The notes below the pieces were generated by a model. The model searched no databases. It had not been told where the DNA came from and saw only the letters and a list, made by a program, of their open reading frames with translations. Shown here in pieces: positions 36,387-48,219 of a DNA stretch of 64,000 nt. The stretch comes from Rickettsiales bacterium. GTDB lineage: Bacteria; Pseudomonadota; Alphaproteobacteria; Rickettsiales; JABIRX01. Each line of letters opens with the position of its first letter. Within the stretch, counting starts at the first letter, position 1. Position numbers and translations under genes: made by a program. The stretch lies in contig JAWUXM010000016.1 of NCBI GenBank assembly GCA_034111325.1, forward strand, positions 29,214 through 93,213, given 5' to 3'.

Positions 36387-38114
36387 ATGCAAACTCTCAA
36401 ATACTCATTCATCTTTCTGCTCCTAACAATCAGTTCAAGTTTTGCGCTGGAAGGAAATTGGCAAGCAGCACCGCATTTAAAGTCACGTTTATTGATTACC
36501 GAAAGTAATGATACCCACATCTCTGGCGGGATAGAATTTACTATTGAAGATGGCTGGAAGATATACAATGACAAACCAGGCAAAAATGGCTTACCCACCG
36601 AGATCGATAATTTACGAAGCCAAAATATTACCAATCTCCAATTTACCTTCCCTAAAGCAAAGAAATTTGATGAAGGTCACAACATCATAACCTATGGCTA
36701 TAAAAAACATGTAATTTTACCTTTTACGGCTGAGCTAGTTGATAACCAAGCAAACTCACATGTAAATTTGCTAGCAAATTTGGCGATTTGCAAAGATATA
36801 TGCATCCCTGTTTCACAGAAATTTAGCACGGATGTTAAGCAAAGTTATCATAGCTCTGTATCGGAACGCTTAATAAAACCATTCCTGCCTAAGACAAATT
36901 ATCAAGTTATTTTACTAATGTTATCTTTTGCCTTTATTGGCGGTTTGATTTTAAATATCATGCCTTGCGTTTTGCCAGTTTTATCAATCAAATTACTCAA
37001 CATTATAAAGAAAGGAGGCGCTGATAAGAAAACAATTCGTCTAAGCTTCTTAGCCACTGCCAGCGGGATAATATCATCCTTTATGATCCTTGCGGCCTCT
37101 ATCGCAGCGCTTAAGCATTTCGGCAAAAATTTTGGCTGGGGGATTCATTTCCAAGAACCAATATTTTTGATTTTTCTAATTTTGATATTAGTAATTTTTG
37201 CCAGTAATTTATGGGGCTTTTTCCATATAAATTTACCCCATCAATTAAGTAATATTGGGAGCAAAAAACATAAGAACCCTTATGCAAATCACTTCTTTTC
37301 TGGCGTACTCGCAACCTTACTTTCAACGCCCTGCTCCGCACCTTTCTTAGGTTCTGCAACTGCCTTTGCCTTAGGCGGCAGCATTACGGATATTTTCTAT
37401 ATATTCTTCTTTATGGCGTTAGGCTTAGCCTCACCATATTTTGTCCTAATGGCTTTTCCGAATTTAATTAGCAAATTCCCTAAACCCGGCCAATGGATGA
37501 TCAATGTCAAAAAATTCATGGGGTTTTTATTATTACTCACTGCCCTATGGCTTATCTGGGTTGTCTCACATCAGTTAGGCTTCGCCTCTAGCCTTGCCTT
37601 AGTAATTATCGCCACCTTAATTTTTAAATTATTTGCTTGGGCTAATAAAATTAGATTCCTCAAAAAATACTCATTGATTCTCTTTCTAATTCTGAGTGTT
37701 GCTGCTTTCTATACACCACTTAAAATCGCCGAGATGCGGGTTGAAAAGTTAAAACTGTCCCAAGATCTATGGCAAAAATTTGAACCACAAAAAATCCAAC
37801 CGTTGGTGCAAACAGGAAAAACAGTGTTTGTTAATGTTACGGCCGATTGGTGCATTACTTGCAAAATAAATAAATTTTTTATTCTTAACAAAACCTCTGT
37901 TATCAATAGCTTGCGACAAGAAAATGTCATTGCGATGGAAGCTGACTATACTAATAAAAATGAAGAAATTTATCAATTCCTTATTAGTAATAATCGCTAC
38001 GGTATACCATTCTATATTATCTACGGGCCCAATGCGCCACAAGGTATAAAACTCCCTGAGGCTATTACTCCAGCTATGGTTATTAAAGCAATTAATGAGG
38101 CAAGCGGCAGATGA
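36387..38114 (+). CDS. dsbD: DsbD/ScsB-family thiol:disulfide interchange protein
   Basis: Signal peptide, an N-terminal periplasmic domain, and a TM core with MPCVLPVLS and TPCSAPFLG. The C-terminal thioredoxin fold carries WCITC. Confidence 0.85.
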   Translation: MQTLKYSFIFLLLTISSSFALEGNWQAAPHLKSRLLITESNDTHISGGIEFTIEDGWKIYNDKPGKNGLPTEIDNLRSQNITNLQFTFPKAKKFDEGHNIITYGYKKHVILPFTAELVDNQANSHVNLLANLAICKDICIPVSQKFSTDVKQSYHSSVSERLIKPFLPKTNYQVILLMLSFAFIGGLILNIMPCVLPVLSIKLLNIIKKGGADKKTIRLSFLATASGIISSFMILAASIAALKHFGKNFGWGIHFQEPIFLIFLILILVIFASNLWGFFHINLPHQLSNIGSKKHKNPYANHFFSGVLATLLSTPCSAPFLGSATAFALGGSITDIFYIFFFMALGLASPYFVLMAFPNLISKFPKPGQWMINVKKFMGFLLLLTALWLIWVVSHQLGFASSLALVIIATLIFKLFAWANKIRFLKKYSLILFLILSVAAFYTPLKIAEMRVEKLKLSQDLWQKFEPQKIQPLVQTGKTVFVNVTADWCITCKINKFFILNKTSVINSLRQENVIAMEADYTNKNEEIYQFLISNNRYGIPFYIIYGPNAPQGIKLPEAITPAMVIKAINEASGR

Positions 38115-38596
38115 TCTATAAAATAAAACCCATTGAAAATTCCATCCTCCTTGGCGCTTTATCTATACTCTTCCTCTCTAGCGCTTATATCATGCAATTT
38201 GGCTTTGATATGCAGCCCTGCATCTTATGTATATATCAGCGCATCCCCTATTTATTACTGATATTATTTTCTATTCTCGCCATGGCTTTGCGTCATAACG
38301 ATCGAATTGTAACTTTTTTCTTATCACTCTCTACCCTTATACTTTTTATCGGCAGCGCTATCGCTTTTTACCATGCTGGGGTTGAATATGGCTTCTTTGA
38401 GGGCTTAAGCAGCTGCGCAACTAAATCACCAATGGTTGATAATATTGAAAAATTAAAGAACTTTCTGCTCCAACAAAAAGCTATGGATTGTAGCAAACCA
38501 CAATTTGTTTTTCTCCTTTCCCTAGCAGGGTGGAACTTTATTATATCTTTATCGCTTGGTATTTTTACTTTAGTCACTATATTAAGAAGTAAATAA
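38111..38596 (+). CDS. dsbB: Disulfide bond formation protein B family
   Basis: 161 aa with 4 TM segments. CILCIYQRIPY is the first Cys pair; a second periplasmic Cys pair follows. There is a 4-nt ATGA overlap with dsbD. Confidence 0.8.
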   Translation: MIYKIKPIENSILLGALSILFLSSAYIMQFGFDMQPCILCIYQRIPYLLLILFSILAMALRHNDRIVTFFLSLSTLILFIGSAIAFYHAGVEYGFFEGLSSCATKSPMVDNIEKLKNFLLQQKAMDCSKPQFVFLLSLAGWNFIISLSLGIFTLVTILRSK

Positions 38597-39421: not shown

Positions 39422-40231
39422 TCAAGAAATTATAAAAGAAAGGTGAATACCCATAGAGTTTTCACCATTTTTAGTTGCGCGACGATATGAAAAACAATTC
39501 TCCACATCAGCAAATGTATCAATCTCTACCATGTCAATTTTAGCAATTTTCTCTTCTTCTAGCTTCTGCTTTACATAAAATTTTAAAGCAAATTGATATT
39601 TCCCATCTGTTTTACCAGCTGTAAAAAACTTCTCATTATCTACTGATTGTCCAATAAAACGCTGGCGGAAGTCAATATCCACCTCATAGGATTCTTGAGC
39701 AATAGATGGCATAATTGCAGCTATGATATGCTCACGCTTGCCGCCTACTTCTTCCATTAAATCTATTGTATTCTTAACAATTCCAGACAAAGCACCTTGC
39801 CAACCGGCATGTGCTGCTGCACTCACTTTGTTTATAGGGTCATATAATAAAACTGGCACACAATCTGCACTTAAAGCGCCAATGGCAATATTAGAGTTTT
39901 TTGTAACTATAGCATCCGCTTCAGGACGCTGATCAACAGACCAAGGCTTGTCACACAAAACTGCGATATTACTATGAATTTGCTTTACTGTAACAATATT
40001 TGGAACTCCAAGGAACTTGCTGGCTAATTGATAATTATCTAAGATATTAGCTAAAGAATCACCGCTATTAAAACCAAAATTTAACGACTCATAGATCCCT
40101 TTACTAACACCGCCCTTTCTAGTAAAAAAACCATGCTTAATATTGTTCTGCCGAAATAATGGACTTTCTATAATTCTAACTTTCAACTTATACCAAGGTT
40201 CATCTTTAAATGTAGTATTTGTTGTAGGCAT
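39422..40231 (-). CDS. pgeF: YfiH/PgeF-family (laccase-domain) purine nucleoside phosphorylase-like protein
   Basis: HGFFTRKGGVS..YESLNFG, SADCVPVLLYD and AAAHAGWQGA. Confidence 0.88.
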   Translation of the reverse strand: MPTTNTTFKDEPWYKLKVRIIESPLFRQNNIKHGFFTRKGGVSKGIYESLNFGFNSGDSLANILDNYQLASKFLGVPNIVTVKQIHSNIAVLCDKPWSVDQRPEADAIVTKNSNIAIGALSADCVPVLLYDPINKVSAAAHAGWQGALSGIVKNTIDLMEEVGGKREHIIAAIMPSIAQESYEVDIDFRQRFIGQSVDNEKFFTAGKTDGKYQFALKFYVKQKLEEEKIAKIDMVEIDTFADVENCFSYRRATKNGENSMGIHLSFIIS

Positions 40232-45773: not shown

Positions 45774-46637
45774 CTAATTGTCTTTGATGATTTTAGAAAT
45801 TTCCTTTTCAACCATCTCTTTAACAAGCTTTGGCAGATTATCATCCATCCATTCTTTTAACATAGGTTTCATAAGCTTTACTGATGCAATCTCTTGAATA
45901 ATTTTAGATGTTTCACCAGCTAATTGCGCAGAAATTATTTGCGAAATATCCTCTGATTCTGCTAATTTCTTATCAGGCGTATCATCAGATGGCGTTTCTT
46001 CTATTATCTCTTCATCTGCACTATCCTCGAAACCTAAATCTTGGTCAAGATCTTCACTCGAAAGCAATTGATCACGCCTTCTTTTTAATTCTTGACCTTC
46101 CTCAAGATGATCCAACCCTAAATCACTACCAACCATTCTTGACCAAGCTTCATGCTTATCCTCAACATGTTCTTCGCCCTCATCTTCGTCATCATCACCT
46201 TCGTCATCATCGTCACCCTCATCTTCGTCTTCGTCATCATCGTCACCCTCATCATCATCTTCTTCGTCATCATCGTCACCCTCCTCATCATCTTCTTCGT
46301 CCTCTTCAACCCCTGTATATTCCGCACCATCTTGGTCTTCATTAAGCGCTTCTTCAATTGCTGCTAGCTCAGAAGAAAACCTCCCTTCATCACTCTTAAC
46401 TTCTATTTCTTGTATTTCTTCTACTTCTTCTGTTGCTTGCTGAGTTATTTCAGAAATTGCGCCATCATCCTGCACAGTGCGAGTTAAATTAATAACATCA
46501 TCATCTTCACTAATCTCTTCCTGACCTGTTGGTTTAGACCTATCAATTGCCAAATCATCACCTTCAAGCATTGAGCGAAGTTTCTTGAGGATCTCTTGCG
46601 TATCAGCGGCAGAGCCTGATTGTCCTGTTTTAGTCAT
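45774..46637 (-). CDS. popZ: PopZ-like polar organizing protein (DUF2497) with an expanded hyper-acidic linker
   Basis: The N-terminal helix [16 protein letters not shown] and the C-terminal [31 protein letters not shown] parallel Caulobacter PopZ (MEEILASIRRIISEDD and LLRPLLKEWLDQNLPRIVE), quoted from memory. The central tract is about 60 residues of almost pure D/E/G. Confidence 0.65.
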
Positions 46638-46823
46638 ATCACTTCCTTTTTTTGTAGGAGATTATCCATAAGCGAGCATTAGTTTCAAGATTTAAATTCT
46701 GCTCATTAGCTCCATTAGTTTTCATAAGTTTTTACCTATAAAAATTCGAAAGCCCTTATTGATTTTAATTTAATAGGATACTAGCATGAGTTTTCAAGTT
46801 TTATTCAAAAGGAGATCGCCACA

Positions 46824-48212
46824 ATGCAGCAAGATCATACACCCCTATTAATCCGCTCTTTCCTGCTTATAACGCTCTTTTTCTACAGCCATGTTCTTCA
46901 CGCAGACCAATCAATCAACTTCGGCAACAACGTCGTAAACGCCGCAGATAAAGGCTTTACAAATCAAGTCGCTAGCCTGATCGATGCTAGTTATAATATA
47001 AATGCAACTGGCACATTTTCTACTACTGCGCTTATGCGTGCTAGTTATCGTGGTCACTATAAAATAGCTAAATTATTGGTCGAAGCAGGCGCTAAGACTA
47101 ACATGAAAGATCTTGGCGGCGCCACTGCATTACACTTCGCCAGCCGTCAAAACCACCCTAAAATAGTACAATTATTAATTAACCATGGCGCCGACATTAA
47201 CAGCAAAGATAATGAAGGCTGGACACCCTTAATGCGCGCTGCAATTTCAAACTACCCCTCAATAACAAACACCTTACTTAGCAACAAAGCAAATATTGCT
47301 GCACGAAACTATAGCGGCAAAACAGCTTTATACTATGCAATTTATGCAAAGAATCACGAGACCACACAGCAAATATTAGATCGCCTAAGCACCTCAAATA
47401 ATAACGATATTAAAACAGTCAAAAACTCACTCATAATAGCCAAGCGCAAACAGGATCAAGCAACTGCCGTTGTACTATACACCTTCCTACAAGAAGCAGA
47501 TAAAATTGCTAAACAAGAACAAGAAAATCAACGTGTCGCTCAAGAAGCAGAAGAAAAAAGAAAACAAGCAGAAGTAGAGAAAAAACGCATAGCTCAAGAA
47601 AAACGTGAAGCAAAAGAGAAAGCCATAGAGAATGAAAAAAAACGCATCGCAGAAGAAAAACGCAAAGCCATCATAACCTTATCTAACACTGCATTAATTG
47701 CAAAAATTGTACCAACCAAAGCTTTGCAAAACAAAATGCCATGGCTAGTAACAACCGCACCAACTACAACGCTCTCAACTAATTCAGAAATCTCATCTAC
47801 ACTGCCAACTACCACAATTGACGATATGCCATGGAAAAGCACAAATGCTAAAGAACCTGTATCTCTTCTATCAGGGTTGCATTCTAACAATTCCAACAAA
47901 AATCATAAATCTCCGAATATATCACGCCAACAAAAAGCATCGCCACCAATTGCTATCAACAACAAACCTCTTGAATTAAAATATGGTATATATTTTATCC
48001 AGATAGGTTCCTTTCCTACAGCACAGGAAGCTATCAATATCCGTAATCAAGCAGCAAACATTGCCAACACAATAATTATACCAACAACAATAAATGGGAA
48101 AACATTTCATCGCGTGAGAATCGGCCCGTTTGTTAATCGCCGTGCCGCTCGTGAATTCATCCAAACACAAAACATCAAAAATGAATTTGGCTACGCAACG
48201 ATTGTTAAATAG
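46824..48212 (+). CDS. Secreted ankyrin-repeat / coiled-coil / SPOR-domain protein
   Basis: Signal peptide. About 4 ANK repeats (TALMRASYRGHYKIAKLLVEAGA.., GATALHFASRQNHPKIVQLLINHGADIN, GWTPLMRAA..). A K/E-rich coiled coil follows. The C-terminal SPOR-like segment is YFIQIGSFPTAQEA...FHRVRIGPFVNRRAAREF. Confidence 0.75.
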   Translation: MQQDHTPLLIRSFLLITLFFYSHVLHADQSINFGNNVVNAADKGFTNQVASLIDASYNINATGTFSTTALMRASYRGHYKIAKLLVEAGAKTNMKDLGGATALHFASRQNHPKIVQLLINHGADINSKDNEGWTPLMRAAISNYPSITNTLLSNKANIAARNYSGKTALYYAIYAKNHETTQQILDRLSTSNNNDIKTVKNSLIIAKRKQDQATAVVLYTFLQEADKIAKQEQENQRVAQEAEEKRKQAEVEKKRIAQEKREAKEKAIENEKKRIAEEKRKAIITLSNTALIAKIVPTKALQNKMPWLVTTAPTTTLSTNSEISSTLPTTTIDDMPWKSTNAKEPVSLLSGLHSNNSNKNHKSPNISRQQKASPPIAINNKPLELKYGIYFIQIGSFPTAQEAINIRNQAANIANTIIIPTTINGKTFHRVRIGPFVNRRAAREFIQTQNIKNEFGYATIVK

Positions 48213-48219
48213 TCATTCA

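Follow-up and report, generated by a model that had tools for sequence, protein, structure and literature searches.

A predicted exported protein joining ankyrin repeats to a C-terminal SPOR domain, a candidate periplasmic septal adaptor of Rickettsiales-like bacteria

We studied a gene of a Rickettsiales bacterium located in a DNA stretch of 64,000 nucleotides (the window, whose numbering is used throughout). Its product presents, in this order, a signal-peptide-like N-terminus, a stack of ankyrin (ANK) repeats, a long charged helix, a disordered linker and a SPOR domain (Table 1). Proteins with a signal peptide, the same ANK module and one to three SPOR or SPOR-like domains were found at 21 loci of metagenome-assembled genomes (MAGs), so that the gene belongs to a conserved family. 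With moderate confidence we propose that the protein is a periplasmic adaptor, tethered by its SPOR domain to amidase-processed septal peptidoglycan and binding a conserved bacterial partner with its ANK stack. It is a plausible candidate for a cell-division or envelope factor rather than for a host-directed effector. A periplasmic or division-site scaffold was one of two options in the original prediction made on this DNA; it is also our best explanation, as a proposal drawn from domains, folds and conservation.

Table 1 Features of the ANK-SPOR gene and its neighbours in the window
Feature	Position	Strand	Basis
PopZ-like acidic protein with C-terminal DUF2497	45774..46637	-	divergent neighbour; Pfam E = 1.2e-13
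Shine-Dalgarno-like AGGAG	46810..46814	+	9 nt 5' of ATG, read off sequence
ANK-SPOR gene	46824..48212	+	ORF of 462 aa plus stop codon
Signal-peptide-like N-terminus, aa 1-27	46824..46904	+	hydropathy scan and family comparison
Ankyrin-repeat domain, aa 30-210	46911..47453	+	Pfam, AF2, Foldseek, family conservation
Long charged helix, aa 212-288	47457..47687	+	AF2; heptad and charge-pair analysis
Disordered S/T/P/N/K-rich linker, aa 289-387	47688..47984	+	AF2 and composition
Linker motif [LM]PW, copy 1, M305-P306-W307 (context NKMPWLV)	47736..47744	+	
Linker motif [LM]PW, copy 2, M335-P336-W337 (context DDMPWKS)	47826..47834	+	
SPOR domain, aa 388-462	47985..48209	+	Pfam, PDB sequence search, AF2, Foldseek, residue alignment
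1414-aa convergent gene	48220..52464	-	ORF list, Pfam

The ORF is preceded by a good ribosome-binding site, AGGAG. A scan of positions 46500-48500 for promoters and terminators gave counts no higher than in shuffled sequences, and showed no promoter-like site on the positive strand of the 186-bp intergenic region. No further SPOR gene or ANK gene of the family type was found in the window. Both the NCBI and JGI databases contain an identical protein (P0001), which JGI calls 'cell division septation protein DedD'. The hydropathy scan revealed a sole hydrophobic segment, at residues 7-26, which ends HVLHA/DQ: about 11 residues (n-region MQQDHTPLLIR, the last being R11) precede an h-region of about 14 residues (SFLLITLFFYSHVL), and the c-region ends HA/DQ. 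An equivalent N-terminus is present in all 22 family members, with a small-x-small end right before the ANK domain, in agreement with the signal peptide that had been predicted. The protein would thus be exported, and its N-terminal signal is probably cleaved, or could instead be retained as an uncleaved signal anchor. It contains no cysteine and hence no lipobox.

Conservation within the family is strongest in the ANK module. Pfam models Ank_4, Ank_2 and Ank matched roughly residues 40-180 with 101.8, 97.7 and 93 bits (E = 1e-27 to 1e-29), and AF2 modelled residues 30-210 as five units of paired helices, closed on the C-terminal side by a capping helix, with pLDDT above 90. Foldseek aligned this part with DARPins at TM-scores of up to 0.97 normalised to the target. 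The HMMs, the AF2 model and the DARPin matches all display the tandem 33-residue helix-turn-helix repeats and solenoid stacking that define ankyrins; the four or five units that Pfam and AF2 give make the earlier count of about four repeats a fair one. We defined the family by a signal-peptide-like N-terminus with the ANK module no more than about 10-20 residues behind it, and by three signatures within that module (T-x-LMRA, D-x-GGATALH-x-A-x-R and D-x-EGWTPLMRA). The module of the window protein carries all three and aligns without gaps to the 21 other members. In the alignment of 22 homologues 38 ANK positions were at least 85% identical, and G98, A100, R108, E131 and W133, which occupy usual ligand-contact positions, are among them. 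The invariance of these contact positions across the 22 sequences suggests one conserved protein ligand, and is the opposite of the pattern expected for fast-evolving host-directed ANK effectors. As to what that presumed partner may be, the matches listed by Foldseek and by PDB sequence search, for the whole model or its ANK part, were all generic DARPins and ankyrins, with no partner clue. NCBIfam models of Dot/Icm-type T4SS Ank effectors (AnkH, AnkY, AnkG, AnkX and AnkI) covered the ANK repeats only and scored 25-72 bits against cutoffs of 500-1400, none of them above its cutoff (e.g., 72 versus 600).

The SPOR identification at the C-terminus is well supported. Pfam PF05036 matched residues 388-447 with 45 bits against a cutoff of 21 (E = 1.4e-11), and the RlpA SPOR domain was the top match in the PDB sequence search of this region. 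Modelled on its own by AF2, the C-terminus had the β-α-β-β-α-β (RNP-like) topology with a mean pLDDT of 76.5. The best six Foldseek matches of this model in the PDB were SPOR domains of RlpA (6i05, 6i09), DamX (2lfv), CwlC (1x60), DedD (6ztg) and FtsN (1uta), with TM-scores of 0.49-0.61 normalised to the query. Mutagenesis and structures have established that Q251, S254, W283 and R285 of FtsN, and Q270 and R309 of RlpA, are needed for binding to denuded glycans (PMC6895207). Residues Q393, S396, F428 and R430 of the window protein align with the four FtsN positions, and Q393 and R430 correspond to the two of RlpA; the glycan-binding Q393, S396 and R430 are kept, and the aromatic is Phe where FtsN has Trp. 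Both the Pfam and the structural checks thus bear out the SPOR domain of the original prediction; from these residues it is expected to bind denuded glycans and to be targeted to the septum. Most family members have a pair of cysteines in SPOR, which is absent from the window protein. Such a pair also occurs in the SPOR domains of FtsN and RgsS, and disulfide formation in FtsN has been linked to peptidoglycan binding; the pair in the homologues fits an oxidising periplasm.

Between both domains, AF2 placed one continuous helix of 77 residues (pLDDT 74-92), about 11 nm long if straight, which gave a weak TolA-like match over residues 224-281 (13 bits). This segment had been described as a K/E coiled coil: the charged helix was found as predicted, and the coiled coil was rejected. 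Heptad a/d occupancy reached 27% at most, 57% of the core was charged, leaving no heptad hydrophobic core, and pairs of opposite charge peaked at i+3 to i+5. As these counts disfavour a coiled coil, the likelier reading is a single α-helix of ER/K type or a spacer resembling TolA domain II, and the role of the helix is probably that of a spacer. The linker that follows spans about 100 residues rich in T, S, P, N, K and L; its composition and a pLDDT of 27-47 confirm the Ser/Thr/Pro/Asn linker noted before. In the linkers of the family [LMIV]PW occurred 13 times compared with 1.3±1.1 in shuffled sequences, and the motif [DE]x[LM]PW was enriched about 10-fold. It is missing in 13 of the 22 members, and where present it is probably a second docking element.

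The family was collected from a species-representative genome collection, with further members among metagenome proteins. The labels of the 21 MAG loci were nearly all Rickettsiales, Midichloriaceae or Alphaproteobacteria. Two Midichloriaceae MAGs aside, all matches of the genome scan fell in unclassified MAGs, the best one being 50% identical to the window protein, and none in the named rickettsial genera Rickettsia, Orientia, Wolbachia, Anaplasma and Ehrlichia. The AlaRS of the source organism is likewise distant from known sequences, sharing at most 61% identity with any protein in the databases; its best matches that carry a name come from 'Rickettsiales bacterium' MAGs, and the PopZ/DUF2497 gene also points to an alphaproteobacterium. 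In seven of the 21 loci the C-terminal domains were below the Pfam threshold and SPOR-like by the family-trained HMM only, and in several of these, e.g., L009, L012 and L014, the key SPOR Gln is replaced by Glu. A search of a representative library of 1.84 billion proteins with the full-length family profile recovered P0054, P0050 and P0279 as the only family members, a number unfit for estimating family size because giant multi-ANK proteins swamped the matches. The original prediction had called the joining of ANK and SPOR an unusual combination. It is not a singular oddity, given its recurrence in the MAGs and metagenome proteins, and it is not an already characterised one either: the literature searched, on ANK and SPOR fusions and on SPOR proteins in Rickettsiales, describes such a fusion nowhere.

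Typical members have three SPOR domains, a VAEAIRVP motif in the linker and the SPOR Cys pair. The window protein keeps the terminal SPOR domain and lacks SPOR1, SPOR2, VAEAIRVP and the Cys pair, and looks like a reduced derivative of the family that may, given these losses, have diverged in function. The best non-ANK matches to the profile of the post-ANK region were the tri-SPOR proteins P0389, P0391 and P0392 (E = 1e-49 to 1e-53). Like typical members they have a signal peptide, a long P/A-rich linker, the sequence VAEAIRVPLS and two C-terminal SPOR domains; they differ in having SPOR1 directly after the signal peptide and no ANK repeats. The family looks as if it arose when a periplasmic protein with three SPOR domains acquired an ANK module after the signal peptide, and in the window protein the ER/K helix stands in place of the lost SPOR1, SPOR2 and VAEAIRVP. 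TPR-SPOR proteins (e.g., P0396) likewise join a repeat-type interaction scaffold to SPOR, although theirs is a TPR and not an ANK solenoid and there is no homology beyond SPOR; their existence makes 'solenoid plus SPOR' a recurring design.

The gene neighbourhood varies among loci and so gives no pointer to the ANK ligand: clustering of neighbours at 23 loci revealed no universal operon partner. The recurrent arrangements were tolC-popZ followed by a gene for a protein with a signal peptide and an intrinsically disordered region (IDR), at four loci (L002, L018, L021 and L027; in L002 this protein has ANK repeats by Pfam), and a short-chain dehydrogenase gene, also at four. Genes virB3/B4/B6 of rvh type adjoin the ANK-SPOR gene at two loci, and unrelated genes do so elsewhere. 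The divergent neighbour in the window encodes DUF2497, the conserved domain of PopZ (PMC5182065), and a popZ homologue lies within a few kb 5' of the ANK-SPOR gene in four other lineages. In the window popZ alone adjoins, with no tolC operon.

Under the periplasmic-adaptor explanation, the protein would be exported by Sec and stay in the bacterium's own periplasm. Its C-terminal SPOR domain would dock on glycan strands from which amidases have removed the stem peptides, and since such denuded strands are enriched at the division septum, the protein would be concentrated there. The disordered linker and the charged single helix (see above) would act as a flexible-plus-rigid tether, and the invariant concave surface of the N-terminal ANK stack would capture a conserved periplasmic or membrane partner, with the [DE]x[LM]PW motifs as a probable second contact. 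Candidates are an enzyme that remodels peptidoglycan or the regulator of such an enzyme, a component of the divisome or of Tol-Pal, and an envelope component of the T4SS; at the site of wall splitting the protein would recruit its partner, retain it or hold it in check.

Several known systems resemble parts of this design. FtsN, DedD, DamX and RlpA of E. coli, CwlC of B. subtilis and RgsS of S. meliloti share with the window protein an N-terminal export or anchor segment, a low-complexity linker and a C-terminal SPOR fold with the key Gln and Arg, in which SPOR targets a variable 'passenger' domain. Here, unlike in all of them, the passenger is an ankyrin stack: the window protein has essentially no cytoplasmic tail of the FtsN kind, and it has neither the FtsN E domain, nor the RlpA DPBB domain, nor an amidase domain, nor the SPOR cysteine pair of FtsN and RgsS. 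RARP-1 of Rickettsia, an envelope protein compared by description only, also combines a Sec signal, a disordered region and ANK repeats in a member of the Rickettsiales; it remains in the periplasm, and the partners it binds there are proteins of the bacterium itself. Its order is reversed (central IDR, C-terminal ANK) and it has no SPOR domain. The four tolC-popZ loci resemble the Rickettsia operon that starts with tolC and includes rarp-1, whereas the window gene lies outside any tolC operon. Bd3460 of Bdellovibrio and AnkB of P. aeruginosa are periplasmic ANK proteins that act on bacterial targets, as proposed here; they differ in being small stand-alone ANK proteins with no wall-binding domain, and among the matches listed in the PDB searches nothing specific beyond the generic ANK fold links them to the window protein. 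RARP-1, Bd3460 and AnkB are thus precedents that support a periplasmic ANK protein acting on bacterial partners.

A sub-case of the periplasmic adaptor, with a specific partner, is that of a septal protein that inhibits a peptidoglycan hydrolase or confers immunity to it, which we regard as rather unlikely. The ANK groove would restrain an endopeptidase, amidase or lytic transglycosylase, and SPOR would put this brake on freshly denuded glycans, much as Bd3460 complexes DD-endopeptidases in Bdellovibrio and protects its own wall (PMC4686830). The invariant ANK surface would suit such a ligand, and SPOR domains are often fused to wall hydrolases or work beside them, RlpA and CwlC being among our structural matches; no hydrolase gene, however, is a conserved neighbour at the 23 loci, and Bd3460 was absent among the 60 sequence and 50 fold matches listed for the ANK domain. 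We also consider it unlikely that the family is the FtsN counterpart of these lineages, a divisome activator accumulating at the septum in a self-enhancing way through SPOR and triggering septal wall synthesis when ANK and/or [DE]x[LM]PW contacts FtsQLB-FtsWI or an amidase activator. The layout agrees (N-terminal hydrophobic segment, long low-complexity periplasmic linker, C-terminal SPOR), as do the JGI name DedD and a match to NCBIfam TIGR02223 (ftsN), but the match is weak (29.1 bits against a cutoff of 107.65). FtsN-like proteins are highly variable in alpha-, beta- and deltaproteobacteria (PMC7822825), and an FtsN homologue is absent from obligate intracellular bacteria, including Rickettsiales, according to a review (PMC10591338). 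E. coli-type FtsN, however, has an N-terminal cytoplasmic tail that binds FtsA and a transmembrane anchor (PMC9525312), whereas the window protein has essentially no such tail and its h-region length and A-x-A-like end resemble a cleavable signal peptide. The essential domain of FtsN needs the conserved W83 together with Y85 (PMC9525312), and a Trp motif is enriched in the family linker; yet this motif is unlike the E-domain sequence, is lacking in over half of the members, and is the sole conserved Trp element of the window protein, in which no E-domain-like segment was found. The distribution of the family in the genome scan, almost wholly in unclassified MAGs and outside the named rickettsial genera, also counts against an FtsN counterpart. 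Unlikely, too, is the proposal that in Rickettsiales-like bacteria ANK-SPOR is the septal regulator of SPOR type that has been missing, with ANK replacing the FtsN E domain. If true, SPOR would bring about amidase-dependent septal accumulation, and the ANK groove, perhaps with [DE]x[LM]PW, would engage FtsQLB-FtsWI or the amidase/LytM machinery, coupling septal synthesis and splitting.

The remaining alternatives place the ANK domain outside the cell. A host-directed effector, released through T1SS/TolC, T4SS or lysis to bind a eukaryotic target, with SPOR incidental or keeping a pool on the cell wall, is very unlikely in our judgement. In intracellular bacteria, ANK proteins often act as effectors, the same genome encodes effector-like ANK protein(s), at least one of them next door, and a tolC operon or rvh-type genes adjoin some related loci (see above). 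Against this, a Sec-type signal plus a domain for the bacterium's own peptidoglycan argue for periplasmic residence, the ANK ligand-contact positions are conserved across very divergent lineages, every T4SS effector model scored far under its cutoff, and RARP-1, once proposed to be secreted by Sec/TolC, was later shown to be periplasmic. The second option of the original prediction, a surface protein anchored by SPOR with ANK displayed outside the outer membrane, we find hardly credible. The long helix and linker modelled by AF2 could in principle span some distance, but the ligands of SPOR are periplasmic, and for a diderm cell Pfam and NCBIfam revealed no β-barrel, autotransporter, lipobox, secretion motif or other outer-membrane translocation module.

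SPOR domains are a general bacterial route for sending proteins to the dividing septum, and where intracellular bacteria have ankyrin repeats, these are nearly always interpreted as effectors aimed at the host. An exported ANK-SPOR family that is conserved calls the latter reading into question: at least some ANK proteins of Rickettsiales-like bacteria are probably housekeeping envelope factors, much as RARP-1 has recently been re-assigned to the periplasm, and effector-prediction pipelines that flag every ANK protein call for caution. Obligate intracellular bacteria are described as lacking FtsN, with the switching on and coordination of their septal wall synthesis still undefined (PMC10591338); the family offers a concrete candidate for septal regulation in such lineages.

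The gene on the other side of the window gene converges on it, with stops 7 nt apart as predicted (48212 versus 48220). It had been called a giant ANK gene, and ANK repeats are indeed present. The epithet was overstated, as the product has 1414 residues with only about three weak ANK repeats (Ank_2, 39 bits). The protein also contains internal repeats of about 60 residues, a poly-Ala tract and, at the C-terminus, a hydrophobic segment rich in G and A, and the local GC content at this gene is 47%.

An AGGAG sequence precedes the ATG of the ANK-SPOR gene by 9 nt. A protein identical to its product is present in public collections (P0001) on a 102-kb JGI metagenome contig, where the JGI pipeline labelled it 'cell division septation protein DedD'. 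Pfam searches matched ankyrin families at roughly aa 40-180 (E ~1e-27 to 1e-29) and the SPOR family (PF05036) at aa 388-447 (E = 1.4e-11, 45 bits vs a cutoff of 21). All NCBIfam matches were sub-threshold: the MzaA and Legionella Ank effector models gave 25-82 bits, driven by the ANK repeats, vs cutoffs of 500-1400; ftsN gave 29 bits vs a cutoff of 107.65, and the charged helix matched TolA at 13 bits. An AlphaFold2 model computed from a five-sequence family alignment resolved the protein into an ANK stack, an uninterrupted helix, a disordered segment and a C-terminal domain (see table). The N-terminus is the sole hydrophobic segment, with one Arg and a ~14-residue h-region ending in HVLHA, followed by DQ; from this sequence, signal-peptide cleavage between the two is predicted. 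There is no cysteine, and the protein is therefore not a lipoprotein. Every element of the original prediction was borne out.

Features of the ANK-SPOR protein, its gene neighbourhood and related loci (window positions in nt unless marked aa or preceded by a locus handle)
Feature	Position	Strand	Description
ANK-SPOR ORF	46824-48212	+	462 aa
ANK stack	aa 30-210		five helix pairs + cap; AlphaFold2 pLDDT >90
Single helix	aa 212-288		uninterrupted; AlphaFold2 pLDDT 74-92
Disordered segment	aa 289-387		AlphaFold2
C-terminal domain	aa 388-461		β-α-β-β-α-β; AlphaFold2
[LMIV]PW copies	M305-P306-W307; M335-P336-W337		linker
PopZ homologue	45774-46637	-	acidic, 287 aa; C-terminal DUF2497 (E = 1.2e-13) + N-terminal helix
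Repeat in middle of PopZ homologue	46180-46301		D/E-rich tandem repeat (TRF, period 15/30/33)
tolC (OEP) - popZ (DUF2497) - signal peptide + disordered-region protein	L002 4446-7977; L018 1597-5529; L021 716-3548; L027 649-4531		divergent from ANK-SPOR gene
virB3-virB4	L087 1-7491; L005 3-2498		L087 also three TrbL/VirB6 paralogues
dsbD-dsbB	36387-38596		envelope-oxidation genes
Cu-oxidase_4 gene	39422-40231	-	YfiH/PgeF-type, peptidoglycan-editing factor family
1414-aa protein	48220-52464	-	no signal peptide; ~3 weak ANK repeats only (aa ~470-560)
(GGCTGC)x7	49051-49094		encodes poly-Ala run of 1414-aa protein
443-aa ORF	52537-53868	-	no Pfam family at E ≤ 0.001
233-aa ORF	56973-57674	+	no Pfam family at E ≤ 0.001
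576-aa protein	58525-60255	+	repeat-rich, acidic; sole Pfam match, sub-threshold and low-complexity, to trypanosome PARP acidic repeats (aa 411-487)

The last 88 residues were also modelled alone and used as a query against the PDB. The six best matches were solved SPOR domains, those of P. aeruginosa RlpA (6i05, 6i09), DamX, CwlC, DedD and FtsN, and the RlpA domain was the top match in a plain sequence search. The ligand of SPOR domains is glycan stripped of its stem peptides by amidases, which concentrates SPOR proteins at the septum (PMC6895207, PMC9525312, PMC7822825). Five residues matter for septal localisation of FtsN (Q251, S254, W283, R285 and I313), and RlpA makes contact with MurNAc lactyl groups of denuded glycans through Q270 and R309 (PMC6895207). 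Residues Q393, S396, F428 and R430 of the window protein occupy aligned ligand positions; its predicted binding face is intact except for a Trp→Phe change.

The original prediction had described the charged segment as a K/E coiled coil, which the heptad and charge-pair counts do not fit. In the best register merely 27% of a/d positions are hydrophobic, the core is 57% charged, and opposite-charge pairs are most frequent at i+3 to i+5 (13-14 pairs) and drop to 6-7 at i+6/i+7, making a coiled coil unconvincing. Such counts are typical of an ER/K single α-helix or of a TolA-domain-II-like spacer, and the segment would be ~11 nm long if straight.

A first homology search with the window protein was dominated by generic ANK proteins. 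Four database proteins of 667-779 aa (P0045, P0050, P0054 and P0073), 38-42% identical to the best-aligned (ANK) segment of the query, had both ANK and SPOR by Pfam; their alignment showed invariant T-x-LMRA, GGATALH-x-A-x-R and GWTPLMRA blocks and two to three SPOR domains. Scanning this alignment against one genome per GTDB species returned 80 loci, the best-scoring nearly all in MAGs labelled Rickettsiales, Midichloriaceae or Alphaproteobacteria. At 21 loci the matching ORF (396-1638 aa) had a signal-peptide-like N-terminus ending in small-x-small, an ANK module directly after it, and between one and three SPOR or SPOR-like domains at the C-terminus; these domains were called with an HMM built from SPOR sequences of the family and of E. 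coli. The architecture thus defines a family and is no isolated case. Of ten weaker-scoring loci checked against Pfam, two (L007 and L036) exceeded its SPOR threshold; L016 was borderline (20.7 vs 21), and L006, L009, L012, L014, L015, L021 and L024 had divergent SPOR-like C-termini uncalled by Pfam. The terminal SPOR-like domains of L009, L012, L014, L016 and L024 fell below that threshold. Several members (e.g., L009, L012 and L014) carry Glu at the glycan-binding Gln position (WLEIG, SIEIG, SLELT, SMEVG), and the ligand specificity of these domains may have changed.

Conservation within these proteins is highest in the ANK module, with linker length and SPOR number varying widely. Identity was at least 85% at 38 ANK positions among 22 sequences, including the usual ligand-groove sites G98, A100, R108, E131 and W133; unusual M-R pairs, conserved across the same set, stand in for the canonical His-Leu/Ala of 'TPLH'. 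Literature searches found no publication on any ANK-SPOR protein, and database annotation is merely generic ('ankyrin repeat protein', 'DedD').

A profile restricted to the post-ANK region recovered more ANK + SPOR proteins (P0279, P0390, P0393 and P0394), a TPR + SPOR protein (P0396), showing that 'solenoid + SPOR' designs recur, and three proteins that lack ANK altogether (P0389, P0391 and P0392). The last three are ordered as signal peptide, SPOR, P/A-rich linker, 'VAEAIRVPLS', SPOR and SPOR, precisely the order seen after the ANK module in typical family members. On the simplest reading of these sequences, a periplasmic protein with three SPOR domains acquired an ANK module, placed after its signal peptide and before SPOR1, and the window protein would be a reduced derivative. 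Of the typical layout it keeps ANK and the final SPOR domain; SPOR1, SPOR2, VAEAIRVP and the paired SPOR cysteines are lost, and the ER/K helix is present instead.

Post-ANK regions contained 13 occurrences of [LMIV]PW in 9 of 22 family members, usually with an acidic residue before and L/K/Q after; shuffled residues yielded 1.3±1.1 and never more than 7 in 2000 shuffles. Lying within predicted disorder, it is a candidate docking motif. The linker of the ANK-less P0391 has three copies of another short motif, [IV]P[ED]RAP[KR]FLDDD, which suggests that disordered linkers of this protein class serve as docking-motif arrays.

The best-supported model for the window protein is a periplasmic adaptor at the septal wall, because of its Sec-type N-terminus, its intact SPOR face and an ANK groove invariant across very divergent lineages. 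The SPOR domain would tether the exported protein to wall processed by amidases at the septum, with helix and linker as a spacer, and the ANK module, perhaps together with the PW motif, would hold a conserved bacterial partner. Whereas the analysis demonstrates the domains, their folds, the conservation and the family itself, we infer the export, the septal targeting, the partner and the function. Periplasmic ANK proteins with bacterial partners have precedents: Rickettsia RARP-1, whose periplasmic interactors include Pal and RvhB9/10; AnkB of P. aeruginosa; and Bd3460, an inhibitor of Bdellovibrio's own DD-endopeptidases. An inhibitor of septal hydrolases would be one particular form of this adaptor.

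An FtsN-like activator is attractive, as obligate intracellular bacteria have no FtsN according to a review, but the ftsN HMM score lies below its cutoff, no E-domain-like segment was seen, and the N-terminus looks more like a signal peptide than like the FtsN tail and anchor. The signal peptide, the SPOR domain and the way conservation is distributed speak against a host-directed effector, and for display on the cell surface the Pfam and NCBIfam matches show no route across the outer membrane. SPOR is a well-known portable septal-targeting module whose passengers vary, and the ANK-SPOR adaptor is therefore not a new category. It does change the label of one class of rickettsial ANK proteins, which become probable factors of the envelope or of division. 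For lineages in which FtsN is said to be missing, it also supplies a candidate septal regulator that can be tested.

The window carries an ordinary chromosomal gene set, with parC/gyrA-like, pyrG, ppiD-like, trpE, trkH, dsbD/dsbB, alaS, hisC/E/F, ndk and lolCD genes. No relative of its AlaRS exceeds 61% identity; among named entries the best matches are 'Rickettsiales bacterium' MAGs and then assorted Alphaproteobacteria, which places the source as a deep, uncultured, Rickettsiales-affiliated alphaproteobacterium still making His and Trp. The divergent neighbour of the ANK-SPOR gene, across 186 bp, encodes a homologue of PopZ, the alphaproteobacterial pole organiser of which DUF2497 is the conserved domain (PMC5182065). 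A popZ homologue is close to the ANK-SPOR gene in the window and at four other loci, and no universal partner gene was found among the ANK-SPOR loci compared for synteny. The conserved tolC-popZ operon at these four loci (L002, L018, L021 and L027) resembles the Rickettsia operon that starts with tolC and contains rarp-1; by gene arrangement its third gene, whose product in L002 has a precomputed Pfam ANK match, may be a RARP-1 orthologue. Next to the ANK-SPOR gene at L005 and L087 is a virB3-virB4(-virB6×3) cluster, an arrangement that is a hallmark of the Rickettsiales rvh T4SS and confirms at least these hosts as true Rickettsiales.

Other genes of the window drew attention. The 1414-aa protein, for which JGI records no Pfam match, has three ~60-aa repeats (QQSGNQSLSGHRTATRK...GKGKGVGNRHV.VNTEKQ) and a G/A-rich, hydrophobic C-terminal segment; local GC is 47% there vs ~38% elsewhere. 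The gene could encode a secreted or membrane-inserting effector, or be recently acquired DNA. The 443-aa and 233-aa ORFs flank the ndk-lolCD region. The Cu-oxidase_4 gene lies ~6.6 kb upstream of the ANK-SPOR gene, and its proximity, like that of dsbD-dsbB, is probably coincidental.
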